A stretch of 60,000 bases of DNA, from contig CM097885.1 of assembly GCA_044892525.1 (NCBI GenBank), forward strand, positions 7,566,001-7,626,000. Reading direction: 5' to 3'. This DNA comes from Schmidtea polychroa. Lineage: Eukaryota. The position numbers and the translations under genes are program-made. This document shows, in pieces, positions 1,878 to 60,000 of this stretch (positions are counted from its first letter, which is position 1; every line of letters begins with the position of its first letter). Below the pieces are notes generated by a model. It did not search any database and was not told the DNA's origin. It worked only from the letters and a program-made list of their open reading frames with translations.

Positions 1878-4800
1878 ATGGTTCTTACTTCGTATAATCT
1901 GTAAGTTTAAATGATGTTCTGACAAATTATTTAATTTTCAAATATTTAGACAAATAGAAAAAGATGCATTTATTATCTACAAATCTCAAAATGCAACTGA
2001 GTATGTTGTAATTGATAGATTATCAGAAGAAGTTACATTGCAAAGTTTTTAATTGTTTAGAAATTTATTGTTTATTGATTTTTTGAAGGAAAAATTAAAG
2101 TTGAGTTAAAAACAGACAATCTTAAAATATGGGGAATATGGGGAATGATTAAATTAATTTCGGGTATCTTAAGAATATTTTAAAGCTTGTTTTTAAAATA
2201 TATTGAGATCAGGTCATTTCCTTATCGTAATAAAAAATGTTGAAACTGTTGGAACGTTGAATAAACATGATATTTACAAAATTACTGAAAGTCAAATTAT
2301 TCCACTTTCTAGATCAAATCGTCACATTGTTGATACTCAGGTTGAATTGCAATTATATTTTATCAGAATTTATATTATTTTCATTTAGATTTTAATTGAA
2401 AGAGAATATTTACAAATGTTGGAAACTGTTTTGGCCACACAAGATTTTTATTTATCCCCAACAATGGATTTAACTCATTCTTTTCAAAGGTTACAAAACG
2501 TCAGTTTGGATTTTCATAATATGTCTATGTTTGAACGGGTAATTAGTTAATTAATCTTTTAATTAGAAATTAATTAATTTTAATTTATGCATTTTTATGA
2601 ATTATTTTAATTTATTTAACAATTTAATTTGTTAAAAACTGTTGATTATTTTAATTAATGTAATTACCGTAATTGCTCCACTTGATACACATCCTCTATC
2701 GGTTTCCTTGCATTTATTATCAAATCTATCATGATTTGTTTATTCTGTTCACCGATTTATATAAATTCATTGGAGCGTTCTAGAGCTCAATTATCAAATG
2801 TTTATCAATTTGCGAAGGTTGACCATGAATATCCGGCACAAAGGTGCACAATGCAGCCAGAATTGGGTTATAAATATCCTTGAAGCAAGCGGGTAGGGCT
2901 GGGGGATAATTCAAGAGTACTGGTTACTGTGTGTCCATCTGCCCCTCCCTCCCCTCCCTCCCACCACTAATCGCTAATTTACATATTTTACCAATTATTA
3001 CTCGTATTAAAACATTTAATAATTGGTTTAAATTCATGCAAATAACATTATTTCGGTGTATTTGTAGGCAGGCAAGATATACGCGTTTATGACCCCTACT
3101 AGTGCCACTTTATCACCCTTTCATAACGCCCTTCTAGTGCCACTTTATCACCCTTTCATAACGCCCTTCTAGTGCCACTTTATCACCCTTTCATAACGCC
3201 CTTCTAGTGCCACTTTATTACCCTTTCATAACGCCCTTCTAGTGCCACTTTATCACCCTTTCATAACCCCTTCTAGTGCCACTTTATCACCCTTTCATAA
3301 CCCTTTCTAGTGCCACTTTATCACCCTTTCATAACCCCCTTCTAGTGCCACTTTATTACCCTTTCATAACGCCCTTCTAGTGCCACTTTATCACCCTTTC
3401 ATAACCCTTTCTAGTGCCACTTTATCACCCTTTCATAACCCCTTCTAGTGCCACTTTATCACCCTTTCATAACCCTTTCTAGTGCCACTTTATCACCCTT
3501 TCATAACCCCCTTCTAGTGCCACTTTATTACCCTTTCATAACGCCCTTCTAGTGCCACTTTATCACCCTTTCATAACCCCCTTCTAGTGCCACTTTATTA
3601 CCCTTTCATAACGCCCTTCTAGTGCCACTTTATCACCCTTTCATAACGCCCTTCTAGTGCCACTTTATTGTCCTTTCATAACCCCCTTCTAGTGCCACTT
3701 TATTACCCTTTCATAACGCCCTTCTAGTGCCACTTTATCACCCTTTCATAACGCCCTTCTAGTGCCACTTTATTGTCCTTTCATAACGCCCTTCTAGTGC
3801 CACTTAATTGTCCTTTCATAACGCCCTTCTAGTGCCACTTTATCACCCTTTCATAACGCCCTTCTAGTGCCACTTTATCACCCTTTCATAACGCCCTTCT
3901 AGTGCCACTTTATTGTCCTTTCATAACGCCCTTCTAGTGCCACTTTATCACCCTTTCATAACGCCCTTCTAGTGCCACTTTATCACCCTTTCATAACGCC
4001 CTTCTAGTGCCACTTTATTGTCCTTTCATAACGCCCTTCTAGTGCCACTTTATCACCCTTTCATAACGCCCTTCTAGTGCCACTTTATCACCCTTTCATA
4101 ACGCCCTTCTAGTGCCACTTTATCACCCTTTCATAACGCCCTTCTAGTGCCACTTTATCACCCTTTCATAACGCCCTTCTAGTGCCACTTTATCACCCTT
4201 TCATAACGCCCTTCTAGTGCCACTTTATCACCCTTTCATAACGCCCTTCTAGTGCCACTTTATTACCCTTTCATAACCCCCTTCTAGTGCCACTTTATTG
4301 TCCTTTCATAACCCCCTTCTAGTGCCACTTTATTGTCCTTTCATAACCCCTTCTAGTGCCACTTTATCACCCTTTCATAACGCCCTTCTAGTGCCACTTT
4401 ATTACCCTTTCATAACCCCCTTCTAGTGCCACTTTATTGTCCTTTCATAACTCCCTTCTAGTGCCACTTTATTGTCCTTTCATAACCCCTTCTAGTGCCA
4501 CTTTATTGCCGTTTCATAACCCCTTCTAGTGCCACTTTATTGTCCTTTCATAACCCCTTCTAGTGCCACTTTATCACCCTTTCATAACGCCCTTCTAGTG
4601 CCACTTTATTGTCCTTTCATAACCCCTTCTAGTGCCACTTTATTGCCGTTTCATAACGCCCTTCTAGTGCCACTTTATTGTCCTTTCATAACCCCTTCTA
4701 GTGCCACTTTATCACCCTTTCATAACCCCCTTCTAGTGCCACTTTATTGCCGTTTCATATCCCCCTTCTAGTGCCACTTTATCACCCTTTCATAACGCCC

Positions 4801-7800
4801 TTCTAGTGCCACTTTATCACCCTTTCATAACGCCCTTCTAGTGCCACTTTATTACCCTTTCATAACCCCCTTCTAGTGCCACTTTATTGTCCTTTCATAA
4901 CCCCTTCTAGTGCCACTTTATTGCCCTTTCATAACCCCTTCTAGTGCCACTTTATTGTCCTTTCATAACCCCTTCTAGTGCCACTTTATCATCCTTTCAT
5001 AACCCCCTTCTAGTGCCACTTTATTGCCGTTTCATATCCCCCTTCTAGTGCCACTTTATCACCCTTTCATAACGCCCTTCTAGTGCCACTTTATTACCCT
5101 TTCATAACCCCCTTCTAGTGCCACTTTATCACCCTTTCATAACCCCTTCTAGTGCCACTTTATTGCCCTTTCATAACCCCTTCTAGTGCCACTTTATTGC
5201 CCTTTCATAACCCCTTCTAGTGCCACTTTATTGTCCTTTCATAACCCCTTCTAGTGCCACTTTATCACCCTTTCATAACGCCCTTCTAGTGCCACTTTAT
5301 TACCCTTTCATAACCCCCTTCTAGTGCCACTTTATCACCCTTTCATAACCCCTTCTAGTGCCACTTTATTGCCCTTTCATAACCCCTTCTAGTGCCACTT
5401 TATTGCCCTTTCATAACCTCTTCTAGTGCCACTTTATTGTCCTTTCATAACCCTTTCTAGTGCCACTTTATCACCCTTTCATAACCCCCTTCTAGTGCCA
5501 CTTTATTGTCCTTTCATAACCCCTTCTAGTGCCACTTTATTGCCCTTTCATAACCCCTTCTAGTGCCACTTTATTGTCCTTTCATAACCCTTTCTAGTGC
5601 CACTTTATCACCCTTTCATAACCCCCTTCTAGTGCCACTTTATTGCCGTTTCATAACCCCTTCTAGTGCCACTTTATTGTCCTTTCATAACCCCTTCTAG
5701 TGCCACTTTATCACCCTTTCATAACGCCCTTTTAGTGCCACTTTATTGTCCTTTCATAACCCCTTCTAGTGCCACTTTATTGTCCTTTCATAACCCCTTC
5801 TAGTGCCACTTTATTGTCCTTTCATAACCCCTTCTAGTGCCACTTTATTGCCGTTTCATAACGCCCTTCTAGTGCCACTTTATTGTCCTTTCATAACCCC
5901 TTCTAGTGCCACTTTATTGCCCTTTCATAACCCCCTTCTAGTGCAACTTTATCACCCTTTCATAACCCCCTTCTAGTGCCACTTTATTGCCGTTTCATAT
6001 CCCCCTTCTAGTGCCACTTTATTGCCGTTTCATATCCCCCTTCTAGTGCCACTTTATCACCCTTTCATAACGCCCTTCTAGTGCCACTTTATCACCCTTT
6101 CATAACGCCCTTCTAGTGCCACTTTATTACCCTTTCATAACCCCCTTCTAGTGCCACTTTATTGTCCTTTCATAACCCCTTCTAGTGCCACTTTATTGCC
6201 CTTTCATAACCCCTTCTAGTGCCACTTTATTGTCCTTTCATAACCCCTTCTAGTGCCACTTTATCACCCTTTCATAACCCCCTTCTAGTGCCACTTTATT
6301 GCCGTTTCATATCCCCCTTCTAGTGCCACTTTATCACCCTTTCATAACGCCCTTCTAGTGCCACTTTATTACCCTTTCATAACCCCTTCTAGTGCCACTT
6401 TATTGCCCTTTCATAACCCCTTCTAGTGCCACTTTATTGTCCTTTCATAACCCCTTCTAGTGCCACTTTATCACCCTTTCATAACCCCCTTCTAGTGCCA
6501 CTTTATTGCCGTTTCATAACGCCCTTCTAGTGCCACTTTATTACCCTTTCATAACCCCTTCCAGAGCCCCTTTATTTTCCTTATAGTGCCATTTGAACAG
6601 CGAAATGTGTGACGTAACCTTGGCATGCAGTACTGACATGATTATTAGTCGCATAATAAACACAATCGTTCCATTCAATATTTGATCCAGTCAAGTGTAC
6701 ATATTGAATGTTACACATCACACCATTTTCATATAATCATCCGATGAACTCTATCTGCCTCTCGTTGCTAAATTATACAATTATTATCATTATATATAAA
6801 TATATATATATTCATATAGTTTCCAATAATTATTATATCTCTGTTGGTTGCGATTTATGAATTATATATTGCGTTGAATAGCCGTGTTTATTGATTTTCA
6901 CATATAAATTGATGTCAGCAACACTTGATTAGTGATTTAATTTCAAAAATTATAATTATAGATAATATTTATTTCACAATCATGATAATTGATATTAATA
7001 CACCAAATTTCCATCATTTACGGAAAATATTCAGTTTTTTTCGCTATTAGCAAGATTTTTAATCTTCACATTAATATTCGAATTCCTAAATTTTTCTCAA
7101 TCATTTCATTTCGTTATTTTACAAATGAGGTGTCACTACGATAGAATAGATTCCCATTTTGTCCAATTAAAATTCACGAATCCCGCGTGGGACTTACCGC
7201 TCGCATGCGCTCACTATCCATTGGCGGGGATAAATAATTTCGTCTTAATAAAATAATTTTGTTAACAAGAAAGTTCTTGTTGTTAAAAATATAATTTTAA
7301 GGCTGATGAAAGGTTTGTATGGAATCGACATTTAGTAAACAATTTCGTCCAATTCCCTGAGCTACAGAAGTTTGTTCTTCCAATTATGCATGGATGTGAG
7401 TTATTCATTTTATTGTGTTATTATATTTTATAAATCATATATCAATTAATTACTTCCACTAGCCTAGTTTTACTGGATCATTTTTATATCATTTTATTCG
7501 TAGCTGGTATTTTATTATGACATTAAATTTAGTTAATTAGGATTTTAGTTTTACCTACAGTTTTTTCCATTATCATATTACTTGTTATTTTATATAATTT
7601 GTTATTAATTCAATTTATATATTTATAGATTTATTTTTAATTCTAGTTCAATAAAATATTAATTTTATTTATTTTGTATGAAAAAAAATTAATTCTAATT
7701 TGCAGTTGGTATTTTATTATGATAATAAATTTAGTTGATTTCGATTTGGTTTGACCTAGTTTTATTCAATATTATATTATTTGTTATTATAATTTGTTAT

Positions 7801-10800
7801 TAATTCAATTTATATATTTATAGATTTATTTTTAATTTTAGTTCAATATAATATTTATTTTATTATGATAATAAATTTAGTCGATTTCCATTTTAGTTTG
7901 ACCTAGTTTTATTCAATATCATTTTACTTGTTATTTTATTATTATAATTTGTTATTAATTTAATTTATAGATTTATTTTTAATTCTAGTTCAATAAAATA
8001 ATTATTTATCTAATATTTGCAATCTTTTATTTTTTTTGTATGAAAAAAAATTAATCCTAATTTTTTAAAATGGCTGTATCTAAAATCGATACAATCAATG
8101 TAAATCCGGGACGGGTGAGCTTATTTCCCTGAAAATAAACGAAATAATCTGCATAGCAACTATCAAATATTATGAAATATCATTAACACCAAATATCCTT
8201 TAGTCATCGGATCAATAAATTACAATTTTCCACATTCTGGTGGCCCATTCAGTATTTGGTTAATTAGTCGACGTAGTATTCACAGAGCCGGTACGAGATA
8301 TTATTCTCGAGGCTGTGATAATAATGGCAATGCTAGTAATTTCGTTGAAACCGAACAGATAGTTGTATTCGGTTCAGACATCGTTTCATTTATCCAGGTA
8401 ACGAGAATATTTCGCTCACAACAAACTAACCAAAATCGACCTTTTCCAGACCAGGGGCTCTATTCCATTAGTTTGGAGTCAGAAACCAAACCTTTATTAT
8501 AAACCAAAACCAAACATGTCAGTTCCCGAAGATGAACAAGTAGCCGTTTTGACTGAGCATTTCAATTCTCAGATTTATATCCATAAATACGGTCCTCAAA
8601 TCGTCGTTAATCTTCTTAACCAATCAGGATCAGAAAAACCTCTCGGATCACTTTTTGCTCGTATTTTGCACGATTCTCATTTGCAAAATGTCAAGTGGGT
8701 TTTTTCTCCGATAATTCTTATAAAATTAATTATTTTTGATTATTTAATTATAATTTTGTCAATTTCATTCATTTTTTAAATCTATTTATTAAAAAACTTT
8801 AAAATTTCTAAAAATATACATATAAAAATACTAATAAATTTTAAAAAAATTTGAAAAATAATTAAAAATTAAAAAATTTTCAGATGAAAATATATACTTG
8901 AATAAAGATTTTCTGAGTGTAAGAAAAATTTAAAAATAATTTTTTAAAATTAAAAATAATTTTAAAATTATAAAATTTTCAGAAGAAAGATCAGAGTAGA
9001 ATAATTGCTTAAATAAAGATTTTTCGAGTTTAGGATTAATTATAAAAACTTAAAGCTATAATTATCTGAAAAATTTTAAAAAGTTTAAATTTAAAAAAAT
9101 GTAAATTTATAAAAGAAAGATAAAAGTAGAGTATTTGCTTAATTGGAAATTTTCCGAAATTAGCACTGAATTTCAAAACTTAAATTTATTAAAAAATTAT
9201 AAGAAAAAATTTTAAAAATAATTTTTAAAAATTTAAAAAAATTTTTAAATTATAAAATTTTCAGAAAAAAGATCAGAGTAGAATATTTGCTTAAATAAAG
9301 ATTTTTCAAGTGTAGGATTAATTATAAAAACTTAAAGTTATAATTATTTATCTGAAAAATTTATTAAGAAATTTCAAAAAAAATTGTAAAAATTTTTTTG
9401 AAAAATTTTAAAAAATGTAAATTTATTAAAGAAAGTTCAAAGTAGAGTATTTGCTTAGTTGGAAAATTTCGAACATAGCACTGAATTTCAAAGCTTTAAA
9501 ATATTAAAAAATTATAAAAAAATCAGAAAAAATTGTAAAAATATTTTAAAAATTAAAAAAAAATTAAATTATAAAATTTTCAAAAAAAAGACAAAAATAC
9601 CTATTTAATTCAGCTATTGAAATGCACATTGAAATTTACACAATTTTTGCTGATTTTACCAAAATTATTTCGAACCGCGCGCCAAATTCTGACATTTAAA
9701 CAACGATAAAATACCTGTTAAATAATTCAGTTTTTAAAATTAAACAATTTCCCAGAAATTTTTTTTCTTTCATAAATCCAAAAACTGTTAAATATTAAAA
9801 ATTTATTTTAAAACGCGCGCCGAAATCTCACATTTAAACAACTTGAAATACCTGTTAAATAATTCAGTTATTGAAATCTACACAATTTTCGTTGATTTTA
9901 CCCAAATTATTTTAAATCGCACGCCACTCATTTAAACAATCACATTTACCTATAAATTTAGACATAATTTCCTAGGAAATCTGATTTCTTTCATTAATTT
10001 TCAAGAAAATGTTAAATATTAAAATTTTATTTAAATTGCGCGCCAAAATCTCACATTTAAACAACATTGAAATTTACACAATTTTTGTTGATTTTACCAA
10101 AATTATTTGAAAAGCCACCAATTTTTCATTGATTTAAACAAATACATTTATTTCTATTTGATTTGAGCTGATTTATCGTTTTTTAATGTCAATGATATTG
10201 ATTATTGCAAAATATCGATTTTATATATAAAATTGTATTTATTTGTTCAAATTTGTATGTGATATTGATTAAATAAAATGATTTCCAGATATGTCCCATT
10301 TGATTTTCATCACATGTGTAAAAATATGAAATGGGACAAATTAGAGATTTTAATGGACACTCTTTTGCCAGACATGGATGAAATGAAGTAATTGTTTCCA
10401 GTGATTTGATGTGTTGTCTCACCGTTATTATCACCGTAGATATCTGCACATGTCTGGTAAAGACTCACAGAAACCAACTGTGACCTATATACAAAATGGA
10501 GTATTTCGAACGAATTGCATCGATTGTCTCGATAGAACTAATGTCGTTCAATCAATGATTTCTTGGTGTGTCTTAGAAAGGATTCTGATTGATTTGAATA
10601 TTCTCCCAACTTCATCTAATGTGCAAAATCACTCTCGTGGTGAATTGCTTGATCAAACCTGCCCAGAACTTCATTTTCTCTATAAAAACCTTTGGGCTGA
10701 CAATGGAGATACTCTTGCTATTCAATACACTGGAACTGGAGCTCTTAAGAGTGATTTCACCAGAACCGGTATTTTTCTTTGTTTGAATTTCTTGCTCTTA

Positions 10801-12957
10801 CCCAATCGATCCCTTTCACATATTTTCGCTATAATAAAACTTAAACAATTCACTTTTTGTTTGCAATATACTCCACTACAAAATATATCAATATAAATAA
10901 CACTTGAGAGAAGCAGTGCTGAAAATCTCTTAAATTAAATTGAAAAGAAACACAAATGAAGATAAATAAAATTTAAAAGGATAAAACAAAAATCGATATC
11001 TTTACTGATTCATTTTTTCATTTTATTTTCTTTTTCACATTTTATAAATCTTTTTCCAAATATTAGACTCCAAAATGTCTTTCATCGTAATTAACCTTTT
11101 CAAATTAAAATTCTATTTGGATAAAAATTACATCATTTTGTTTATATTTCCTTATAAACTTTCAAGGTCATCACAATATCATGAAATATGTCCAGATCAA
11201 ATATAATTCAATTGAATCATTTATTTTTTAAATTAAAATTTTATTTAATTCATTTTAATTTTATTATTTAATTATTATTATTTTTTAATTTAAATTTTAT
11301 TTAATTACTTTTTTTTAAAATTTAAATTTTATTTAATTATTTTATTAATATTTTATTTTAATTACTTACGTTATTTATTTAATATTATTATTTATTTATT
11401 TTTTATTTTATTATTCTACATTTACATTTAATATATGCTAACAAGAGAGTAAATTATAACAATAATATTTCAATTTGAATAAAGTTTTAATTAGAAATTA
11501 TTTAATTTATTATAAAATAAAAAAAAGGAAAAAAAAGTATTAATATTAAATAAATAACATAATTAATTAAAATAAAATATTAATAAACTAATTAATTAAT
11601 GAAATGTAATAAATTAAAAATTGACTAAATTAAGTAATTAAAATAAAACATAATGAAATAATAAAATTAAAATGAAAAAAAATTTTTAAATGAAGTAATT
11701 AAATCAAATTTTAAAGGATAAAACAAAAAATGTGAACAAAAATTATTATTTTTTTTAATTTTAATTTTATTTAATATTATTATTTATTTTATTTATTTAT
11801 ATTTTATTTTATTATTTTACATTTAAATTTAAAATATGCTAACAATGGCGTAAATTATAACAATAATATTTCAATTTGAATAAAATTTTAGAAATTATTT
11901 AATTTTTTATAAAATAAAAAAAATTTAAAAAGGGAAAAAATAATAATTAATTAATTAAATGTAATAAATTAAAAATTAATTAAAGTAATTAAAATAAAAC
12001 ATAATGAAAAAAAAATTTTAAATGAATTAAATAAAATTTTAATTTAAAAAATAAATGATTCAATTGACCTATATTTGATCTGGACATATTTCATGATATT
12101 GTGATGACCTTGAAAGTGCGTTGGAGTCTTTACTACTTACTACTAATATAAACAATATTCACATTACTGTCAGTGATTAAAATAAACAGAAGATATCTAA
12201 AATGTAAAATTTATGCCAGATAATATTCAAGAATATATAAATATTATATGGCATATTTTAGATCGATAATATAAATAGATAAATAAATTCAATAAAATCA
12301 TATTCATTGATAATCATTTAATTTAATAATTGCATTTTAAGTTTAATATATTGAAATTATAAAACAAATGACTCAAAATATTTGCTCTTACAAACATGGT
12401 AAATCACAATAAAGCACATAGAAATCCAATAAGGTACATGAGTGAATAGAAAGGGAAAGTTGAGTAAAAACATAAAAACAAAATAAAAGATCATTTGAAA
12501 TAATTCCCGAATCATTCGACCAATAGGAAAACGTCTAGCATCCGGTGTAATGGCTGACGGTTACAAAAGCTCAGTGAGATACATCCTGAATAATTTCCGA
12601 GACGGTTTTAGACAAGATTCGATGGAACTGTTTTTGGGTAACTATATTGTCGACTCATTGGAAGGGTCCTCCATGAAACGTATGAGTCCACTCCAGCGGC
12701 CCCGTGGATGGAAATATCGAGGATTGCCATGGATTTTTGTGATGACATTGTCGTTACTAATACTCAGAATTCTGTTTCCATCAGGTAATGACTAATAACA
12801 CAAACGAATAATATCGCATAATATGATTCCAGGTGAATGGACCAATCAGGCAGTTCATCTGTTTCTATTGGTTTCATTTCTCGTCATTTGTTTGTCAGTG
12901 ATATTCAACAACGGCTACGATTTCGTCAACAGTCCCCGGTTGAAACGAGACGATTGA
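1878..12957 (+). CDS. SAC1: Phosphatidylinositol-4-phosphate phosphatase SAC1 (SACM1L-like), 12 exons
   Basis: Hand-spliced GT-AG exons 1878-1900, 1950-2044, 2089-2163, 2213-2340, 2389-2538, 7302-7395, 8204-8397, 8450-8694, 10289-10387, 10440-10768, 12527-12784 and 12833-12957 give one open frame. Sac motifs seen: ERADERFVWN, LISRRSIHRAGTRY, NFVETEQ, QTRGSIPLVWSQKPNL, FDFH, catalytic CIDCLDRT (10516-10539), [45 protein letters not shown], plus two C-terminal hydrophobic segments. Confidence 0.96.
3092..6565. repeat. 34-35-bp minisatellite, ~100 copies, in SAC1 intron 5
   Basis: Unit TAGTGCCACTTTATCACCCTTTCATAACGCCCTTC with period 35 (AGTGC at 3101, 3136, 3171). Head-to-tail with no unique spacers. 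Confidence 0.98.
7490..8065. repeat. Degenerate AT-rich tandem duplications in SAC1 intron 6
   Basis: Three related blocks containing GGTATTTTATTAT-GA...AAATTTAG and ATTTATAGATTTATTTTTAATTCTAGTTCAATA. Confidence 0.7.
8870..10140. repeat. Degenerate tandem duplications in SAC1 intron 8
   Basis: An ~285-bp block recurs (GATCAGAGTAGAATA near 8990 and 9271). It is followed by repeats of CGCGCC-AAAT-CTCACATTTAAACAAC near 9677, 9815, 9918 and 10038. Confidence 0.65.
11158..12117. mobile_element. Foldback-like element with ~100-bp near-perfect terminal inverted repeats in SAC1 intron 10
   Basis: ACTTTCAAGGTCATCACAATATCATGAAATATGTCCAGATCAAATATA... at 11158 is the reverse complement of ...TATATTTGATCTGGACATATTTCATGATATTGTGATGACCTTGAAAGT ending at 12117. 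The AT-rich interior holds a direct duplication. No clear TSD. Confidence 0.8.
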
Positions 12958-13343
12958 CTACAATCGGTCAGCATAGTTGATGCCAGCGGTGCTGTGGTGT
13001 TATCGCGCTCATTACCGACGAATAATATTAGTAACCAGAGCTACTATTTCGGATTAAATATCTCTGGTGATATCAAGTATTCCAATGATATAATTATTGT
13101 GTGATTCGCTTTTATTGTTCTTGTTTTGTTCGTTAATTATTATCTTTATTTTCCGGGGTTTTTATATATTCATTATTTTGATTGGTTCCTGTAGATTTTG
13201 GGATTTATCGACTTGCTTTCGGTTTTAATTGATTATTTGACAATAGGATCGATGTCGAGCCAGTTTGTTTTTTGCAGATAATCACAATCCCATTATTGAA
13301 GGTTGCAAATTGGAGCGTTGGAGTCCAAATTAGATATCCTGTT

Positions 13344-13821
13344 TCACCAAACGCTATGATATAACTGTTTGATCATCCTTTGAAGCCTGGTCATTATCAT
13401 GTTCATCCACGTTTCTAGACACTGAACAGGGTATCTATGCTGACAGAGCAACTCGTACACTTCATCGGCCACCTCATAATCTGACAGACAAATGGAACCT
13501 GTATCATTAACTGCGGTGATTTTCTTGACTTGTAATTTCTTAATGTCTGCCTCATTTGCTGGTGGAGGACCACTCTGTTCAAATTGATTCATAATACTCG
13601 TTACAAAATTGTCGAAACTTTGATCTGAAATTATGTAATCTGACGAATCGGATCTAAAATCAAGCGGCAGCAATCCACCAAATAAATTTGATATTAGTTG
13701 GCCAAAAACATTATTTCTGTTATCAGGATAAAAAAGGAACCATCAGTTTCGTTTGTAGTATTTCCATTGAGTTATCAGATTCAATAAATCCATCATTGCA
13801 CGTCACACATTTACCATCCAT
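13344..13821 (-). pseudogene. RNF126/RNF115-like RING E3 ligase pseudogene
   Basis: N-terminal MDGKCVTCNDGFIE (zinc-finger half like CPRCESGFIE) ends in a stop. In another frame: DY..DQSFDNFVTSIMNQFEQSGPPPA, then a RING-H2 with lost ligands (TGSIC, CQHRYPVQC) and no final CxxC. Confidence 0.75.
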
Positions 13822-14310
13822 TGAAAACTGAATTCCCAATAAAAGAATTTATTTTTTCAGATTCTAAAAAATCGATACAAAACCTGAAATTATAACTCCA
13901 CAATTGTCCGCGTCTGCGTGCACAAACAAATCCCTCCAACAAAGTAAAAAGCGGCCACAGGCGCGAGAACCGATAATTAACCGTTTCCTATAATATAACA
14001 AAAAAATCAATAATCTAACATTATAGAAACATACTTTGAATTCACGTTGATGTTCTTAAAATATTATCACATGTAGGAGTATTTGACAATAAGATCGATG
14101 TCAAGCCGGTCTGTGTGATTTGTTTTTTGCAGATAATCACAATTCCATTATTGAAAGTTGCAGATCGGAGTGTTGGTGTCCGAAATAGATATCCTGTTTC
14201 ATCAAACGCCACAGAACCGTTTCCTATAATATAACAAAAAATCAATAATCTTACATTTTAGAAACATACTTACTTTGATTTCACGTTGTTCTCATTTACA
14301 CCCGTTTGCG

Positions 14311-14344
<34 letters not shown>

Positions 14345-14346
<2 letters not shown>

Positions 14347-15050
14347 CTGAGTTTTAGATTAATTTAAGTCGGTTCCCTCTGACTCCTCGTGTCCTTTAAA
14401 TCAAAACAATAGACGACCCAACGTATATTGAAATAACAGATTCACAATTCTTTATCACCACTCTACAATTAATAATCAAGGTTCCGTTTGAACGATTCTC
14501 CGCTCGGTGTTGATGCTTTGCAAATAAATAATATTCACCTTTTATTCCTTTTGATTTTCTTGACCCACGTTTTCCTCGGTTTCTGTTTGATTTGATTCCT
14601 TTTTCACTTTTCCGTATTTCTAATTCTGTCTTCTTTTCCCTAATTTCCTTAATTCGTTTTGCTATTCCTAACTCGGTTTCTTCTAACCTTAGCTGAGGCA
14701 AAAGTCCGATTTTCTCTAATTTTCCCTTTCCTTATATACTCCTCAAAATCGGGATGACAAATGGTTATTGCCGAGCCAATCTTTCACTTGACATTTGCTT
14801 CCACGTATCTGTCCAACGAACCAAGATAATTAATGGCCCTTCCGGCCTTTCTACACGCACTATCTTCTTGCTCTTTTCCAATTAATCATTGTGTCAAGCT
14901 AATGGGCCAAATCTTTCTTCTGTTTGCTTTTCTTCTTGTTTAACCAGCTCGGGTTTCCTTCATATCTCGGTTTCTAGTAATCTTCATCTTAGTGGTTTTA
15001 TTTTCTGTTGTTTTGAAGTTCAGGAAAATGGAAAATATATAATATAAGAT
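14345..15050 (-). mobile_element. Probable LTR-derived fragment next to a (TA)n tract
   Basis: Begins with TG directly after (AT)n and has strong pyrimidine skew. It shares CTGACTCCTCG-TGTCCTT with the segment at 54423. Right boundary uncertain. Confidence 0.35.
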
Positions 15051-15410
15051 AGTTTATTGAGTTAGAAGATTCTCGAAAATAATATCAAAACTTTGGTAAT
15101 TTAGTTTCTGATAAATTTGGTTTTGATTTAGGCTTGCTTCTGTATCCAATTTTTCTTTTTCATTTTTGTCTTAATTTTTTCTTCGATTTTTTTTCGATTA
15201 ATTTTTTTTTATTTGTCAATTTACTATCGCTATACAGTTTTTTTTAACATATTGTTTCCCAAATGTTAAGGGTGCAGAAATGAATGTAAAAACAAAACCT
15301 ATTTGAGGTTCTGTTTTAAATCATAACAACAAAAAAAATGTAACATGTTATTAATAGTAAAATATTCCAATTTTCCCAGCTTGTCTAATAAATATTTAAT
15401 TTTAAAATAA

Positions 15411-15523
15411 TGTTGGGGTTTCACCTCGGCTGACTACTCTACAATATTGTCTGGTCTAAGGGTTGATTGTCCCTCTCGAATAAAATGTGCCGCCGCTTTG
15501 TCGACCCGGGGTGAAACCCTACA
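15411..15523. mobile_element. 113-bp TG...CA segment with ~22-bp terminal inverted repeats (mini-LTR or MITE)
   Basis: TGTTGGGGTTTCACCTCGGCTGAC ... GTCGACCCGGGGTGAAACCCTACA. The minus-strand purine tract GGAAGAAAG lies just before TG. TAA flanks both sides. Confidence 0.6.
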
Positions 15524-15913
15524 TAACTTTCTTCCAGCATAGTGCCCGTGAATCACTTCACGTTGGTACTGCACTATGCAGGCGAGACGCCAGCAAGCAG
15601 GTGAGCTTCTGCCTTAAAACTACTCCTTGCTGAGGCCTCGACTTCCCTTTCACGACTGCCGATAGAAGGGCTTACGTCCATTTCATTACCCCACCAGTTT
15701 CCAGGATTTCACGAGAATAAATCAGGGATTATTCGTTAACTCTCGAAGACGCTATATTCAACTTATTCAATTAAAATCTGAAAGTTATAAACGAAAGTAA
15801 GTAAAACGACAAAATTTATTAGTATTCAAGATTAATACACAAGGAGTTAATCGTACACATCACGAGTATTCGTTGAGAAAAAAGAAATGTCACAATAAAT
15901 GCGATACGACTTC

Positions 15914-16681
15914 CTAACGGACTTCAGGAATCTCATTTTCCCATTCGGTTTCGGCGAGCAACTCGTTCAGATCAAAGAATTCGGAGGCATTTTCCTCCCA
16001 TGTCACGCCAGCCGCCGAGATGATGCGCGCTGGGTCCCCTATCGTCAAGTCGATGGACACTCGAGAACTACCACCGCCAGTAGAGTCTTCTATTGATGGG
16101 AGGCTTGGCTTGGTGGACGCACGCTCACGCTGCCTCCGCTTTCGTTCCGCACGCGATAATTGTTTGCGCTTGGGTTTGCTCGTGGTTGTGGTTGTTTGAA
16201 GCACAGTGGGTATAGAGATGTTAGCAGCTGAAGTCTTGCTAGTACCCGTGAGGCTAACGTCCGGTCGCCTAGGTGAAAGTTCGGTTTCCACGCAGTCTCG
16301 ACACGGTCTCTTGAACGGTGGAGATGGATTCGATGAAAGGTTGTGATGAGGCGGAAAGATGTTATCGGCCTCTTTGATAGGAATCTGCACTATCCTTTGG
16401 GTTGTAGCCGCCTTTACGTAGACTTTGTGCAGTGCCTCTGACTGTTCTTTGATGAGACTTCTTTGGGCACGGCTCTCAGATATTAGCGCGTCCCGGCAAT
16501 GTTCGCTACGATCGAGTTTCTTTTGGGTCTCTTTCACCCGAGCGGGACTAAACCATGTCCCTTCTAGTTCGTCTATCTTCCTTTTGTAACGTCCAATCTG
16601 GGTTTGCAGGTCTTTGATGATGGCGTTTTTATCCGCGCAAGAGAAGCACGGACGCAACGCAGGTTTGGTAGTTGGTATCAT
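15914..16681 (-). CDS. Orphan 255-aa protein (CxxC, coiled coil, CxxC, Arg-rich, acidic tail), probably mobile-element encoded
   Basis: Uninterrupted intronless ORF (open from 16780, first ATG at 16681), much more GC-rich than its flanks. Motifs: PCFSC, heptad-like IIKDLQTQIGRYKRKIDELE, PCRDC, KPKRKQLSRAERKRRQRER, EFFDLNELLAETEWENE. Confidence 0.6.
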   Translation of the reverse strand: MIPTTKPALRPCFSCADKNAIIKDLQTQIGRYKRKIDELEGTWFSPARVKETQKKLDRSEHCRDALISESRAQRSLIKEQSEALHKVYVKAATTQRIVQIPIKEADNIFPPHHNLSSNPSPPFKRPCRDCVETELSPRRPDVSLTGTSKTSAANISIPTVLQTTTTTSKPKRKQLSRAERKRRQRERASTKPSLPSIEDSTGGGSSRVSIDLTIGDPARIISAAGVTWEENASEFFDLNELLAETEWENEIPEVR

Positions 16682-18782
16682 GCTCGCTATAAAGAATGAG
16701 GTTAAGACGTAATATGTACATGGTTGAAGAAAATACGTGGAATACGAATAATCGACTGCCCGTGGATATTCAGCCACCAAACAACAATGAATGTCCTTAC
16801 TCGTCGATTTAGATTATGTACAAAATTACTTAATTCCATTAAATAATACTAGTTTGACGGATAAAATTCTTTACCTAACTGAACTATACTGATTTGACGA
16901 ATGTAATTCGATTAATACAGGTTCAGGGATACCTTTACTAATCCTAAAATTTCTCCTACCAATCCGGAATTCCATTTATGATCAAAAATTACGCGACCTT
17001 GACGCTAACAACCTTCCCAACGCTCTTGCCCCCTTCACCCACTCGTATGATATTATAGGTGGTGGTTTGAGGATCGATGATATTTAGTAAAATATTAGAA
17101 TAATAATAATAATATAATGATGTTTAATGAAAACTTTGATACATTATTTATCGTGCTTTGTTGAAGATTCTTACGATTATTTAAATGGGCTACTGAACGA
17201 AATTGTTAGTATTATCTGTAAGCCTAATTTAAATTATTCTAATTTTCCAAAACATAAATAATTTGTAACTAATTTAAGAGTGCGATTTGTGATCGTAATC
17301 AGGATTATAATTATCTGGTGATTATTCCATAATTAGTCTAGACCAAATCTTTATCCAGTAGTATGTGAGAAGTGATAGCTTGAGTACAATAGTCTCGGAC
17401 CAGTTGCTATCTAACATGTTTCTCCGTCATTATCTCGCAGAGAGGAAAAATTACTATCAGTATGGCATATGGCCAAGTTTGTTGCTGATGATATTTACCT
17501 GAGAATTGACTCATGTCTCTCATGCGAATGTTCTCCATGTCAGTGTGTTGTGTGCATGCATTATGTGAACTCTCGTATGTCTGCCGTGTCGATGTGAATT
17601 TGCGTGTGGTTGTTTATTACTTGAAATGAATTTTGGATTTTATCGCGCTTGCTGCTAATTCCATCAACATCCCGCCACTCATATGTTATCCGATACTCAT
17701 TGTGCGGTGGATTATGTAGATTTCCTCTTGCTACTGCTGATGTTTCTCAATATGAAGTTAAAATCAAAAATTGGACTCTTATTGGAATTTTCGACGATCA
17801 ATAAGAAGGTAATGAAGAAAACTACATTCGACCCCTCTTGGTACTACACTGAAAAATTGGATTTTACTCATCGGATTCGTGAATTTCGCAACTATGCCTT
17901 AGACATTGCCTGTTCGATCTCTGGGGAAGGTATGGCATTGAACTAGTTTTCTCTTTGTATAAAATAAATTTTGTTGAATTGAATTTAGAGATATTTCGTA
18001 ATTCTGTAAATATTTTTGGAATTAATTAATTTTTGGGATTCGCTACCATATGTACTCTCGACCGATTTATCAAAATTAATTATGTGCGAAAAAATACGAT
18101 AGACTACATTCAGGGAGTTCTGGAAGCTGAAAGTCACAGGATCTAATTTTCGTAAAATCATGCATTCAGGTGATGTAGGTTATGAAATGACACCAAATTT
18201 TTAGACGAAGTTACTGAATAATTATATGACAAGTTTCTGATAACTAAGATGTGATAAAGTTCAAGAAAACGAACCGATGAGCTAATAGCGTGACCCCTCA
18301 ATCACCGTGCGAATTGTCAAAAACGCATCCATTTATACATCTGTCTTTTCAATCACTGTCTAACTACGGTTTTCCTAGGGCAATCTTTTTAGAGAATTTA
18401 GTCGCACCTTCAGCGATTGGACCCGTGAAGAAGCCTTCACTTTTCGGCCCAATCTAGCTGCGTGATTGAAATACTCCATGTCCACCGGCTGAGCTCCCGA
18501 AGGCACCTCATACCATGACATGGAGTATCTCAACTCCACGTTACTCGTTACTTTGAACAGCATAAAAATATACTTCATAAAAATAATCATAAGAATTGCC
18601 AAATCATATCGAATTAATGCCTTTAGATTTTTAAACCAGTTAATTTATCAAATTTATTAATCGGGATCAAGTGAAAAGAAAAGATCAAATGTAACTTAAA
18701 ATTTTAATTATTTAATAAATATACATAGTTATTGTTACTTCAAAAATTAAGAATAACAAATGAATACAATCTCTTACTGTCA

Positions 18783-19319
18783 CGTTAGGCTGAATCGAAA
18801 TATAAGGCTCGTCTTTTCCAAAATAGTCAACTGGTGTCGAAGCTGGTAGTCGGTTTTATGAGGTTCTCGAGTAGTTTCTCTGAATTTATTGAAGGTTTTC
18901 TGGTCCTAGAGTCAGTCCTGTAATGTTTTTCAAATTAACACTGATTTTTATGATTTTGGCGTTGGTTTATATACCAATTTTTCATTTACGCGGACCAATC
19001 AAAATTGAGTACCGCTTATTTTATTAAATTTATTTGTTTTTTCCTATTTCTTTGGATATTTTACTTATTTTCCTATTTTTATTATATCTTTTATTTATTT
19101 CCTAAATTCCTTATTATTTATTGCGTTTTCCGGTATCTTATTTATTATGTTATTACTTTATTTTTTTAATTTTTTAATTTTAATTTTTTTTTTTTTTTTA
19201 ATTTTTATATCCTATTTATGGTTGATTTATTTATTCCTAAAATTGGTGGTCTTATTTTATTTTATTCGCCTCTTATCTATCTTATTTTTCGACGATCATT
19301 TTTCCGATTCAGCCCAACA
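18783..19319. mobile_element. Solo-LTR-like or MITE-like element with ~15-bp inverted termini
   Basis: CGTTAGGCTGAATCG ... CGATTCAGCCCAACA. No TSD resolved. Confidence 0.5.
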
Positions 19320-19494
19320 ATAAGATAAGAGTTAAAAATGATTTGTTTTATAAATTATTTTCAAAATCGGCATGGTACAGTTCAGTCTGTCTTATTATGC
19401 GATACCTTGTATAAATCCTCACTATCTTTGTAATTATGGAACACTCTATCCAGTAAGCCTCTGTTACTTTCTGGAAGTGTTGTGACGAAAATTT

Positions 19495-20453
19495 TGTTGA
19501 GGATACCTAAATAACAATTTATAAATAAATAAATAAAATTACCTGGGGGAAGATCGTCATGACAAACAGGACGATCTAAGGGAACTCAGAAAAGAAAACG
19601 GAAGCAAAAAGAAATGAGAAAGAGGAAGGAAACAAAAGAAATAAAACAAGAAAACAAAAACCAAGATCAGTACTAATTAATTAGTACAAAAAGGAAAAGG
19701 AATTTCAAAATCGGTAAAAAAGAAAAACAACAATATTCTTATCTCGACAGCTTGCCAGTGATAACGTAATTGCTGGGAGAAGGCGGTTGAACAAGAATGG
19801 AAATAGGGAAACTATCTTGACAGCCGTCAAAGATAAAAAGAGAACAGTCGGGAAAGGCAAGAGAAAGAAAAGTGGAAAACATTTGATTATCTCGAGTGCC
19901 ACAAATAAAACAAGCTATATAAAAAGAAACAGTTGAACATAAAAAACACACAAAATTCAGACAAAAGAGAGAGACAAAATTATATAAAATCGGGACAAAG
20001 TGAGACAAATTTAAGAAACAAATTGAGAGACAATTTGAGAGACTAGTATAGAAACGAATTTGGGAGAAAAAGTTATTGAAGAAAAATAAGAAAACGTCGG
20101 ATGAAACTTTGTTGGAGAAACCATTGTGAAAATGAATTGTGAAGAATAATTGTTGGAGAAGATTTGAATAAAAGAATTATTTGAAAAAATAAACGAAAGT
20201 TACTTGAGTATTTGAATAAATTTGTGGAGAAGGTCAAAGAAAACAACCAACTCAAAGTCCCAGTTGATAAACCAATCAGTAATTTGTAATCTTTCAATCC
20301 GGTGTTATACAAAAGTGCTATTCCTCACTTAGTGTTGAAATAAGCATTGCAGAGTCACCAAGCAGAGTGTTGAATTGATTGTCAGGTAAAGTAAAAGTTT
20401 ATTTGTGATTGCATTTAAACATTTAAATTTATCACAAACCCAATAACCCAACA
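19495..20453 (+). mobile_element. Probable solo LTR (959 bp)
   Basis: TGTTG...CAACA termini with flanks AATTT and AATCT (5-bp TSD with one mismatch). Purine-skewed non-coding interior. Confidence 0.55.
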
Positions 20454-21199: not shown

Positions 21200-47263
<26,064 letters not shown>

Positions 47264-51969: not shown

Positions 51970-54300
51970 CAGTGTTTCCCAACCTTTTTTAACTCATGTC
52001 CCCCCTAGCTGAATTTTTTTTTCTTTTGTCCCCCCTATGCAAAACATTTTACAGTTTTGAAAAAATTTCCAACTATTTTTATTGATATACGTAATTAATA
52101 GATAAAGATTAATTTTTTTATTCAATGAGACGATTGACTCTGATGATTACTGCAGAGTGATTTAATATTAGGTTCGATGTTGGTAAGTTTAAGCCTTAGA
52201 TCTCCTCTTTTGATGATATCTAAACGATTTCTCTTCTTGATAAGTAAATCATTAATTACACTAAATCCACATTCAGATAAATAGGTAGTGGGAAATGGTA
52301 ATAATAGTTTTCTTGCATAAGATGTTGACATTGGATATTTTTTATTCATCTCATCGCTAAGCCATGCCATTATCCTTTTCAAACCAAACAGATTTTTTAT
52401 TGATTCATCGTTTTGAATCTCAGCGATTTCTTCTATATATTCGAAATTTTCGAATTCTGCCAAATCTATAAGCATCGGCTGTGTTATCCAATTTGGGAAG
52501 ATAATTTCTTTTAAGTCTGAAAACCTCTCTTCTAAGTCTTCTATAAGTAATTTTAAATGGTCAAGAATCACTGACTTGGCTGATTCACTTACTTCACATT
52601 TCTGAAGCCAATTAAAACTTTCAAAGTTTTTCTTTGAGAGTGATTTAATACTTATTTTTAAAAGCGAAATAAAACTAAAAATTTTTGCTTTAACTTCAAT
52701 AAGATTTCTATTTTTCCGTTGAAGTTGCTTGTTGAGAGTATTAAACTTCTCAAAGATATCTGTTAAATAGCCCAAATAAGCCTTACCATCTTTCGTCATT
52801 AAGAATTTCATCTCAATCTTGTCAGAAAGAAAGACACTAAGACTATCAAAAAGCTCCATGAATCTAGCCAAACAATTTCTTTTTGAAAGTCATCTTACTT
52901 CAGTATGTAATAAAAGTCGAATATATTCTTCATTTTGTTCTTTACAGAATAACTTAAAAAGACGTTCATTCTTTGAATTGGCTTTAATGAAATTAATACA
53001 TTTTATAACTGACTGTAAAACTTCATTTAACTTAGGAGAAATCTTCTTGGCTACCAAATTTTCTCTGTGAATGACACAATGAATAATCATCATTTCTGGA
53101 TTTTCGTCTTTAAGTAATTTAAGGCAGCCATTTTTTTTACCCATCATGCTAGGAGCTCCATCTGAAGCACAGGAAGTAATATTACTTATAGGTATATTAT
53201 TAATTGTAAGATAATCTTTTAGATGATTTAAAATATCTTTCGCAGTTGTTGTGCTTTCCAGCGATCTGCTGAATAAAAATTCTTCAAAAAATTCCTCTTT
53301 ATCAATGTATCTTACGTAAGCAATTAATATCGATTCGCTGTCTCTAAAAGTTGATTCGTCCATTTGTAAAGAGAAATTTAAAGTTTTTAGTTTCTCAACA
53401 AGTTGATTCTCCACATCTTTACTCATTTCATCAATACTTCTACTGACAGTAATTTTACTTAACGGCATTCCCTTAACATCCGCGTCATCTTTACCCATAA
53501 CTATCCTAAGAAATGCAGAAATCGAAGGCTTGATCAGACTTTCTCCTACTGTATGATTTTTTCCAGATTTTGCAATCATCTTTGAAATTTCAAAACTAGC
53601 TTCAAGTGTACGATCACTTATAGAACTATGAAGGGTAAACAAAGATATCAAAGTTGTTCTCTGTTCGAATTGTTTCTTTAAGGATTGAAAGAAAGCCAAA
53701 TCAGATGTTTTATAAGAACTATGCTTGGCCAAAAAGTGTGCTTCGAGGCGACCTCGTTTCATTGATTCATTTGTAAGACAAATTTTAGATCTTTCAAACC
53801 AACCGTGGGTTGCTAAAAATGACATCTTTGTTACAGTTGCAGAGGAGAATGGTAACTGACTCTTTATTTCTAATGACATTGGTATCAATGAGAATTCGCT
53901 TTTGTATTTTGTCTTCTAACCATATAATTAATGCCTTTTCCATTTTTTCCGTTGCAATATTCCTTGCATATGAAGTTGTACTCAGGCTCTCGCAAGAACC
54001 AGCTACTACACTTTTTCTGACTCATTCATTGAACAATATTCGTTGTTTTTTCTCCATTACGTAAACGATTTAAAATTTTAATTTTCGTTTCTAACGAAAT
54101 AACTTTTCTTTTCATTTGGTTTTTCTTTGCTTTTTTTGGCATGGTAAGATAAAACTGCTAAAAGTTTAATTAAACTACAAAACCATTAAACAATTAAACA
54201 AAACACGAAATTTAAGAAAAATAATACAAATTTACACATAATTTTTCTTTCTTAAAAAATTGCAACACCAAATGACATAAATTTAAATAATTAAAAAATA
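51970..54300 (-). mobile_element. hAT Buster/Charlie-type transposon (ZBED5/SCAND3-like transposase), frameshifted
   Basis: Terminus CAGTGTTTCCCAACC at 51970 preceded by ATTTAGAT. ORFs 52890-53888 (FSLQMDEST, SDGAPSMMG, IHCVIHRENL, LLLHTEVR*) and 52122-52871 (LLPFPTTYLSECGFS, RNRLDI..RGDLRLKLT). The other terminus was not found. Confidence 0.92.
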
Positions 54301-54689: not shown

Positions 54690-55891
54690 AGTACAGGACA
54701 AATTTTATGTATTAAATGGAATCTAAAGTACATCAAAATTAAATCCGATAGTAAATCAATTGTGTGTTGGGTTAGCAGCATATTATCAAGCTACAGAAAA
54801 ATACATACAAAAGAAAATTCAGAGTTGTTAATACGACGAAGGCTGGAGCTTTTAAAAGATCTAGCGATTGAGTATGAACTTAAAATGAACATTGAGTTTG
54901 TATCTACAGAAAATAACAAGGCTGATGTATTAAGGAGGGTACCAGCCAACTGGATGATTATTAAAAAAGAAGTCGCAGCTTTAGGCAATCAAAAAAGCTC
55001 GAAAGATGTGTTATTAGAGATTCACAAGATCTGCCATGTAGGGAAAAATCGTATGCGATTCTTAGCATCGGAAGCGGGGATACTAAATCTCAGAAATAAT
55101 TGCAAGTTGTAATCAATGCCTATCAATTGACCCAGCGCCAGTAACGCGGGAAAAGGTGAACTAAGCTGTGATGAAAATTGGTGCCGTTTAGCAATTGATG
55201 TAGCTAAATTTGCTAATGATAAATATTTAACAATTATTGATTGTGGACCATCGAGATATGCAATCTGGAAGAAAATTAAGAATGAAATTGTAGAATAGAT
55301 ATGTAATACATTAAATGAAGTGCTATATGAAAGAGGAGCTCCAAGTAAAATATTATTAGATAATTACTTATCTTTTAGATCTAGAAAATTTCAAGAATTA
55401 GCAGATAAATGGAATGTTGAGTTGGTATTTAGAACAGTGAACCGTCCAAGGGGAAACGGAATCATTGAACGCAGCCATCGGACAATCAAATCACTAGCAG
55501 CTAGGTCCTCAGGAACAATCGCAGAAGCTGTGTACTGGTTCAACAATACGCCAAACAACAATAATATTTGTCCATCTAGAGCCATATCTAGATATAATCC
55601 AAAGCTGAATCTGCCAAGCTACAATAAAAAAGAAATAATAATCGAAGCAAAATATTCTGCTGGTGATCCAGTATGGATAAAACCGAATTTGAATCAAAAA
55701 TGCACAGAAAGATGGAAAGATGGACATTCATAAAGCATTATCAAATACAAAAATTTTAGTCAGATGTAATGGATACGATATACCGCGACACGTGGGCGAT
55801 ATTAGAAAATAAGTTGTTAAAGATTCAGATGAATCTGGTGGGGATGTAGGAATAATGTAATATTAAACAATTAATGTAGTTTTAATATTAT
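54690..55891 (+). mobile_element. Degraded Gypsy-type RNase H/integrase fragment with PPT and start of a 3' LTR
   Basis: IKSDSKS...ENNKADVL (RNase H), H-x3-H, RLAID, LLDNYLSF, RGNGIIERSHRTIK (DDE). GGTGGGGA purine tract followed by TGTAGG at 55845. Confidence 0.85.
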
Positions 55892-58800: not shown

Positions 58801-60000
58801 GCTATTAAATCATTTCACAGGCCTAAGTGTATAAAGAATATGAGAAGCTTTTTAGGTATATGTAACTATTATCGGAGATTTATTAAGGAATATGCAACAA
58901 AATCAAGAGCGCTAGAAAGCATATGTGGAAGCAATAGTGAAAAAATAATCTGGACTGAGGAATGTGAGAAAGCTTTCGAAGAAATGAAAATGGCGTTGAC
59001 TACAGCGCCAATTCTCGTATTTCCAGATTTCAAGAAAGAATTCATATTAGATACAGACGCAAGCTTTGATACAATTGGAGCTGTATTATCACAAAGAGAT
59101 GAAATGGGGCATGAACACGTTATTGCATATGGATCACATGCAATGAGTAGCCATGAAAGAGGATATTGTATAACACGAAAAGAGCTTTAAGCTATATATT
59201 ATTTCTATCGCCATTTCAACCATTATTTATACGGTAAAAGGTTTGTTTTGCGCACTGATCATAAAGCAATAACTTTTATGTTAACGACAAAGAAGCCTAT
59301 AACAGCACAGTTCCAAACGTGGATAAATTACTTGAGCAGTTTAGACATAAAAATGGAGTTCAGAAAAGGTACGGTGCATACGAATGCAGATATGCTGTCT
59401 AGATATGCTACATGCGGCAAATGCGTACAATGTTTGATGGATCATGATAACCCCAAATCAGGGCGATTAAAAACTAAATTGTTAACATTGATGACTGAAA
59501 ATAATGGAAATGAATGGCAAAGAGATAATGCAGAAATACAAGATATAAAAGATCAAATAAATGAAAGGAAAAATAATAAATATATATTAAAAGGAAATAT
59601 TATCTATACCAATCAAAACAAAATATGGATACCAGAAACAAAAAGACGAGAAATGATTAAGGAAACACATTTATTATTATGCCACGCAGGAGTAGAAAAA
59701 GTTATGAAATATATTAGGAACAATTTTGATATGGAAGACTTGCTAAATGAAGTAAAAGAGACTATTTCAATATGTGAAGCATGCCAGAAAAACAAAGTTT
59801 TAACTACAAAGTCAAAAGAAAAAACCCAAGTAATTCAAGCTTCAGAACCTATGGAGAAAATATACATGGATATTTGCGGTCCATTAAGAGAAACCTTCAG
59901 AGGAGAAAAATATATTTGTGCAATAATCGATCATTACAGTAAATACATATCTCTAACTCCTATTAGAAAGCAAGATGAAAATACAATAAAGGCAGTTTTG
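55892..60000 (+). mobile_element. Ty3/Gypsy LTR retrotransposon (5' LTR, PBS, gag, PR, RT, RH, start of IN), with stops and frameshifts; runs off the window
   Basis: LTR ends CTAACA at 56184 (start uncertain, 55845 or 55892). PBS TGGCGACCACG. Three CCHC knuckles (56812-57090), LLDTGA protease, RLCLDFRQLN and YLDDIL RT, DTDAS RNase H, stop at 59188-59190, then integrase HHCC and YMDICGP...IIDHYSKY. Confidence 0.96.

Follow-up and report, generated by a model that had tools for sequence, protein, structure and literature searches.

The question raised by this locus is what kind of gene occupies a GC-rich stretch within the AT-rich DNA of the 60,000-nucleotide region of Schmidtea polychroa analyzed here (hereafter, the window), and what unit carries that gene. 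The original prediction described an orphan, intronless frame of 255 codons in DNA of foreign composition, located next to an LTR-like end, and suggested an accessory transactivator or RNA-export protein of an invertebrate LTR element or endogenous virus. Both the frame and the unusual composition were confirmed. The minus strand contains an ORF (ATG at 16681, stop at 15914) that encodes 255 amino acids and has a GC content of 51%, compared with ca. 20-35% across most of the window. No ATG-initiated ORF of such length appeared in 500 shuffles of the surrounding element, nor in 500 shuffles of its GC-rich part. Coordinates of this and other features are given in Table 1.

Table 1. Features of the 3.9-kb element in window coordinates.
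Feature	Position	Strand	Basis
Left copy of target-site duplication, 4 bp, ATAA	15407..15410		Matches right copy
Full element (3,909 bp) with TG...CA ends and a 7-bp terminal inverted repeat	15411..19319		End comparison
Terminal module A: fold-back 15411-15523, purine tract 15527-15535, bulged hairpin 15537-15579, hairpin 15583-15642	15411..15678	-	
Candidate polyA signal AATAAA, ca. 95 nt past the stop codon, followed by a T/GT-rich run	15815..15820	-	Consensus match
ORF, 255 aa: core 15-99 with kink W43-P46, linker, Arg helix 171-189, SIM-like motif 208-213, tail 225-255	15914..16681	-	Frame, alignment, predicted structure
Apparent intron in 5' leader, 2,091 nt, GTAAGA...TATAG	16687..18777	-	Splice sites and contig joint
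Intronic module B: long hairpin and second copy of bulged hairpin	18415..18540	-	Fold, contig depth
Putative non-coding first exon, 167 nt, no ATG	18778..18944	-	Start inferred from initiator-like TCAGT
Internal complement of right end	18784..18813		Shuffle test
Promoter-like motifs: ATTGG (18999, 18978), TATATAAA (18973), TCAGT (18944)	18940..18999	-	Consensus matches only
Right copy of target-site duplication	19320..19323		Beyond contig-covered stretch

The ORF lies within a bounded unit. The sequence that ends at 19319 is an inverted copy of the first seven bases at 15411, and the combination of such a repeat with a flanking duplication occurs once in the window, ca. 0.003 being expected per 10 kb (a figure uncorrected for the free choice of lengths). 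The TG...CA terminus previously seen at 15411-15523, along with its purine tract (15535-15527), is indeed present; however, it constitutes just one end of the 3.9-kb element. Contigs of four public runs (X1, X4, X5 and X9, of which X1 and X4 belong to one study) were placed on positions 13800-19200 at 80% likeness. One contig departs from the window sequence at 15410 and another one joins it at 15411. The depth of the left-junction contigs is 14 and 21, and that of inner contigs is 96-356 (X1, X4), depth here not being equivalent to copy number. No pol, transposase or second LTR accompanies the ORF within the element or in the window, and 16 short frames in and around the element contain no mobile-element domain. 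Comparison of the two ends gave no direct or inverted repeat longer than 7 bp, and the window holds neither a second copy of the element nor any tRNA gene.

The ends and the 4-bp duplication point to a gypsy-type integrase; gypsy termini, in the available part of a published survey, follow TGTNR (PMC2836005). Because the unit is bounded and lacks coding enzymes, a solo LTR is the simplest interpretation, and we give it an even chance. The position between pol and a 3' LTR that had been envisaged for the ORF was not borne out, the ORF being inside the duplication-bounded unit. The broader proposal, in which the ORF is accessory to a mobile element present in many copies and bounded by LTR-type ends, is supported by the ends, the duplication and repetition, and it is almost certain that the ORF is a genuine mobile-element gene. 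Repeat catalogues may already list the element. An internal complement also exists for each of the two ends (15500-15519 for the left end), with none of 200 shuffles reaching the score for either end; these complements are accounted for by none of the explanations considered below. An Rfam scan of positions 13800-19500 to E 5 retrieved five chance-level matches, none of them to a hammerhead or other ribozyme. The hammerhead that would mark a Penelope-like element or retrozyme was not found in that scan, and a deltavirus-like circle was rejected, as positions 15405-16850 lack a rod-like fold.

The coding part of the gene is intronless, as had been proposed, whereas the gene as a whole appears, from its splice signals, to contain an intron of 2,091 nt that stops 5 nt short of the ATG, so that positions 16687-16780 would be intronic. 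On the minus strand, GTAAGA is found at 18777 and a pyrimidine-rich acceptor ends at 16687. Two contigs of run X9, which is guessed to be RNA, join positions 16686 and 18784 with CT..AC ends, none being recorded for X1, X4 and X5; the joint contigs stem from a diverged copy ca. 90% identical to the element in the window. Judged by these signals, the element probably carries its own spliced transcription unit, with a putative promoter, exon, intron, ORF and AATAAA.

The frame is also kept in other copies, as far as can be seen from 32 listed contig pieces among 11,317. All seven listed pieces wholly within the ORF preserve its length at 8-20% divergence; the eight listed non-coding pieces of the element with at least 9% divergence all change length. 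The 18 listed differences within the ORF, a sample too small and biased for dN/dS, include 7 silent and 11 replacing ones (9 of them in the linker) and no stops. A frameshift suggested by a one-base insertion at 16191 in X5 was discarded, since both covering pieces have two gaps and their net length is unchanged.

Two parts of the element stand out by fold and by contig depth, which is far above the surroundings at 15411-15678 and ca. 18325-18550. On the minus strand, module A folds better than shuffles with a z of -3.13, and module B with a z of -4.44 (-7.84 over a 150-nt stretch). Each of them contains a stem, a 5' bulge, an inner stem and a small loop, and the hairpin motif that they share is found at 15561 and 18440 only within the 60-kb window, the pattern having been defined post hoc. 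The minus strand gives the more stable inner hairpins, the plus strand the more stable terminal fold-back. Module A is common to diverged copies, which differ past 15678. No Rfam family matches the structured modules.

The protein is not an orphan, as 13 distant relatives, all unnamed database records, were found. An exhaustive search retrieved nine of them (E 5e-9 to 5e-4, 31-39% identity over approximately residues 22-126), and profile searches added four. In one profile search, 25 of 26 matches were furins pulled in via a host-derived tail in the alignment and were discarded, P0013 alone being retained. Counts of motifs given below refer to 12 of the 13 relatives, with P0009 excluded. Each of the nine relatives that were looked up forms a single-member cluster. 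According to Pfam, 11 of the 13 are gene models fused to an unrelated host-gene domain, a different one in each case (neurotransmitter symporter, glycine cleavage P, L21, actin, CRAL-TRIO, subtilase, DAD, tyrosine phosphatase, sybindin, LSM14 and MCM), and two have no Pfam domain; fusion to RT, integrase, Gag or transposase was seen in none. We infer that so many unrelated fusions arise because gene finders read a repeated element with a strong splice acceptor in introns. The element corrupts gene models, most of its database relatives being chimeric with unrelated host genes.

Positions W43, P46, L66, E69, R71, Q73, R74 and I77 are invariant in the family. A match to Gag or ORF1 would have spoken against the original prediction; Pfam gave none for the window protein or its relatives. 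Other searches were similarly negative. A word-indexed search with the window protein alone returned no relative among 589 candidates, PHROGs contained no match, and matches among PDB sequences were limited in one search to furin-type ones due to the host tail in the alignment and absent from another. No related loci stood behind 116 pattern matches in viral contigs or 56 in metagenomes, and at 43 metagenome loci retrieved by a terminal-motif search the match was confined to the motif itself. The best ESM Atlas scores, 0.84 and 0.88, serve as leads only; a delta-antigen row (0.78) was set aside. Neither the protein family nor a comparable gene within the LTR of an invertebrate element was described in the literature searched, which was thin on subscription journals. 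The gene is conserved and belongs to an unnamed family.

AlphaFold2 modeling bore out the coiled coil and the helix-like nature of the arginine-rich motif. Two long helices (residues 15-39 and 46-99) are predicted with high confidence, with block pLDDT of 92-97 over residues 21-90. Another helix (177-189) covers the Arg motif, and the remainder is disordered (mean pLDDT 65.8, pTM 0.40). The model contains no capsid-type helical bundle. Foldseek searches of BFVD and PDB returned no matches at E 0.001 or better, and fold searches yielded generic long helices only, the best VIA-align Z of 9.3 being tied with such helices. When two copies of residues 8-116 were modeled, a parallel coiled-coil dimer was predicted with a score of 0.46, compared with 0.00 for the best control; at least 83% of contacts agreed between runs, pLDDT was at least 76, and the invariant residues W43, L66 and I77 fell within the predicted interface. 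In calibration, 21 of 30 microbial homodimers and 17 of 29 eukaryotic ones attained the dimer mark, against none of the 23 and 30 single chains tested alongside them, respectively; among eukaryotic dimers without an older solved relative, only 1 of 7 did so, and coiled coils may pass the test through generic likeness. The modeling supports a long homodimerising coiled coil as the family core.

An S/T/P-rich linker joins this core to the arginine-rich helix, ca. 70 disordered residues separating the two. The Arg-rich stretch itself (residues 171-187) is present in 7 of 12 relatives. As had been noticed, the C-terminus is acidic and aromatic (10 D/E, one K/R and four F/W residues); an acidic tail also recurs among relatives. 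The pI of the window protein is 9.3. The two CxxC pairs, C12/C15 and C127/C130, which had been listed among its features, are both there, but they are not features of the family, being found in 0 of 12 relatives. The same two residues precede each CxxC, and the first CxxC sits in the predicted dimer interface; in this subfamily only, one zinc could be shared between two chains at that site of the model. SIMs have a recognized consensus and are linked to silencing. A SIM-like motif, recognized with a pattern written post hoc, occurs in the window protein and in 4 of 12 relatives from both subfamilies, and the shuffle rate of the pattern in these five proteins is 0.8-2.6%. The PPxY motif is absent from the window protein and present in 2 of 12 relatives. 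A simple pattern scan, which atypical signals can escape, found no leucine-rich nuclear export signal past the core of the window protein, a point against the suggestion of an RNA-export protein. Export-type leucine patterns occur in 5 of 12 relatives, but at unaligned places or in host-derived tails. One of the 13 relatives matches Pfam REV through its Arg stretch (E 0.0013; 19.1 bits, below the cut-off of 22); the window protein does not match this family.

These data suggest the following scheme. The 3.9-kb unit would be a solo LTR that remained when the two very long LTRs of a gypsy-like retroelement recombined, and it would carry a complete spliced gene. A Pol II promoter located ca. 350-375 bp inside the right end would drive a short exon, which splicing would join to the ORF. 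The product is predicted to dimerise as a parallel coiled coil; its Arg-rich helix would bring it into the nucleus and bind the bulged hairpin, which is present twice in the element's unspliced RNA, and the acidic/aromatic tail and SIM-like motif may recruit host transcription or chromatin factors. The protein would then be a Tat-type positive regulator of its own element. The RNA-binding, import and activation steps are deduced from anatomy. That the protein is a nuclear regulator of the element is fairly probable; that it is an activator acting specifically through the hairpin is unlikely. The overall reading, a solo gypsy-like LTR whose product activates the element's own RNA in the manner of Tat, is our tentative preference.

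The origin of the unit can be explained in two ways. The TG...CA ends, short inverted repeat and 4-bp duplication, without pol, transposase or a second LTR, argue for a solo LTR, and fusion of the relatives to 11 different host domains is expected if a gene finder reads intron insertions. Not one relative is fused to RT, integrase or Gag, and the region from start to polyA in the ORF sense, ca. 3.1 kb, would make a very long R region; both points argue against a solo LTR. Alternatively, and somewhat less plausibly, this would be a complete non-autonomous element that depends for its movement on a gypsy-type integrase or Ginger-like transposase acting in trans, the ORF being its sole gene and the terminal fold-backs at 15411-15523 (after the purine tract) and 18778-19319 (with the promoter) being its unlike ends. 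The lack of relatives fused to RT or Gag fits such an element, as do the separate internal complement of each end and the order of module A-ORF and module B-promoter, which diverged copies keep across differing spacers. Ginger elements, as characterized in the portion of the report available, share TGT ends and 4-bp duplications; however, their inverted repeats measure 40-270 bp in Ginger1 and ca. 50-180 bp in Ginger2 (PMC2836005), as opposed to 7 bp here, no direct repeat is common to both ends, and no partner enzyme was identified.

For the function of the protein, alternatives to a Tat-like activator are less probable. A Rev-like protein that forms oligomers on the hairpin module of the intron and carries unspliced RNA of the element out of the nucleus would agree with spliced expression, with the strongly folded conserved module within the intron and with the REV match of one relative, and the combination of a coiled coil and an Arg motif is found in Rev-like proteins, going by the accessible sections of a review (PMC5568270). 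We consider it improbable, as the leucine-rich export pattern is missing after the core or, in relatives, unaligned or host-derived, the REV match is below the cut-off and limited to a single relative, and the acidic/aromatic tail fits activation better. It is similarly improbable that the dimer is an anti-silencing or chromatin factor whose SIM-like motif and acidic tail counter SUMO- or piRNA-dependent repression, with the Arg helix serving as a nuclear localisation signal only. Occurrence of the SIM-like motif in both subfamilies, at low shuffle rates, is in line with this role, and gypsy LTR elements are, in the part of the study at hand, main targets of nuclear PIWI silencing in planarians (PMC8532177); yet the pattern was fitted after the fact and is missing in 8 of 12 relatives, several of them truncated. 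An atypical Gag or ORF1-like RNA-packaging protein would have a coiled coil, a basic helix and a high pI, as does the window protein, and PPxY is found in some relatives. The absence of Gag/ORF1 families from the Pfam results, of a capsid-type bundle, of a downstream pol and of PPxY in the window protein makes a structural role highly improbable. Hardly any credence can be given to the idea that the ORF is a host gene or is open merely by chance in GC-rich DNA: the one point in its favor is the absence of named relatives, against which stand the ORF length, unequaled in shuffles, the target duplication, repetition and the many unrelated host fusions.

The closest retroviral proteins are Tat and the Rev-like group. 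The Tat-like protein proposed here resembles Rev, Rex, Rem and Rec, in the available part of their description, in its Arg-rich helix, its coiled-coil oligomerisation (predicted here) and the structured unspliced RNA near or in the LTR; Rev-like proteins require an export signal (PMC5568270). Unlike them, the window protein shows neither above-cut-off homology nor an export pattern, has an acidic tail and comes from an invertebrate host, and its coiled coil is much longer and ca. 70 disordered residues away from the Arg helix. HTLV-1 HBZ, as portrayed in the section of the source at our disposal, is, as proposed here, the product of an LTR-promoted spliced gene and a nuclear coiled-coil regulator with an activation domain, but its gene is read in antisense and has its coding part outside the LTR, whereas the whole gene is here inside the bounded unit (PMC10186651); the domain order of the window protein is also different.

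Among mobile elements, the giant gypsy-like Burro/GYPSM1 elements of planarians have an internal region of up to 25 kb and a total length of more than 30 kb. They are similar, by description, in having multi-kb LTRs (implied in Burro) and accessory ORFs; their accessory ORFs and cargo domains are internal, and the available part of the description mentions no spliced gene within an LTR (PMC6431247). Plant gypsy elements offer the Retand antisense TRP28 ORFs, which are extra ORFs in the internal region (PMC11963269), and ORF0 of Retrosat2, which has LTRs longer than 3.2 kb and in which solo LTRs longer than 3 kb are common (PMC3485330). Insofar as the partial texts go, these ORFs share with ours a lineage-restricted distribution and a suspected regulatory role, but they are internal rather than within the LTR and the proteins are unrelated (PMC11963269, PMC3485330). 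The partial account of Ginger1 and Ginger2 gives them TGT...ACA ends, a 4-bp duplication, a size of 2.6-7 kb and introns, all similar to the element studied here; Ginger2 prefers AT-rich targets, and the inverted repeats of both are longer (PMC2836005). The element differs from Ginger in lacking a DDE transposase frame, although the same would be true of a non-autonomous copy.

Regulators of the Tat/Rev type have been described from complex retroviruses of vertebrates, and none was found for an invertebrate LTR element in the literature searched. A more far-reaching version of the preferred reading, that an invertebrate gypsy-like lineage independently evolved a complex-retrovirus-style control circuit wholly within a 3.9-kb LTR, is rather unlikely. 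The parts of such a circuit would be a spliced gene, which encodes a dimeric Arg-rich regulator, and the cognate RNA hairpin of that regulator, present twice (in the intron and in the terminal module). If it exists, each solo LTR in a host intron is a working regulator gene that acts in trans on the whole family, and if solo LTRs keep expressing the regulator, they are not inert. With its unnamed family, a spliced gene complete in itself and a candidate RNA target that occurs twice, the element offers a small system open to direct testing.

Several other features of the window were recorded. To the left of the element, positions 14342-15410 form a very high-depth repeat that starts at a (TA)n run, and the element is inserted into or beside it; a related contig tracks this repeat to 15410 and then departs. 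Positions 13231-14290, which contain a RING E3-like fragment (13344-13742, minus strand), partial duplications and very high contig depth at 13981-14161, are probably a repeat carrying a host-gene fragment. Exons at 10450-12795, with no Pfam match, resemble by motif a SAC1-type phosphoinositide phosphatase, and two adjacent frames at 52122-53879, also without a Pfam match, are similar to a hAT-type transposase. At 54765-60000, a decayed integrase-like stretch (identified by eye) is followed by a gypsy-like gag-protease-RT-RNase H region with stops, which is not similar to the 3.9-kb element. Positions 3023-6500 and 24682-25545 are occupied by tandem arrays, whose units measure 35 bp and 36 bp. 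Finally, a palindrome of ca. 10 kb (35642-45542), whose arms are 91-100% complementary in the ten longest pairs, falls between exons of an OST-alpha-family gene (21149 and 46363) and carries in its spacer a RING fragment (41721-42047; zf-C3HC4_3, E 7e-10).
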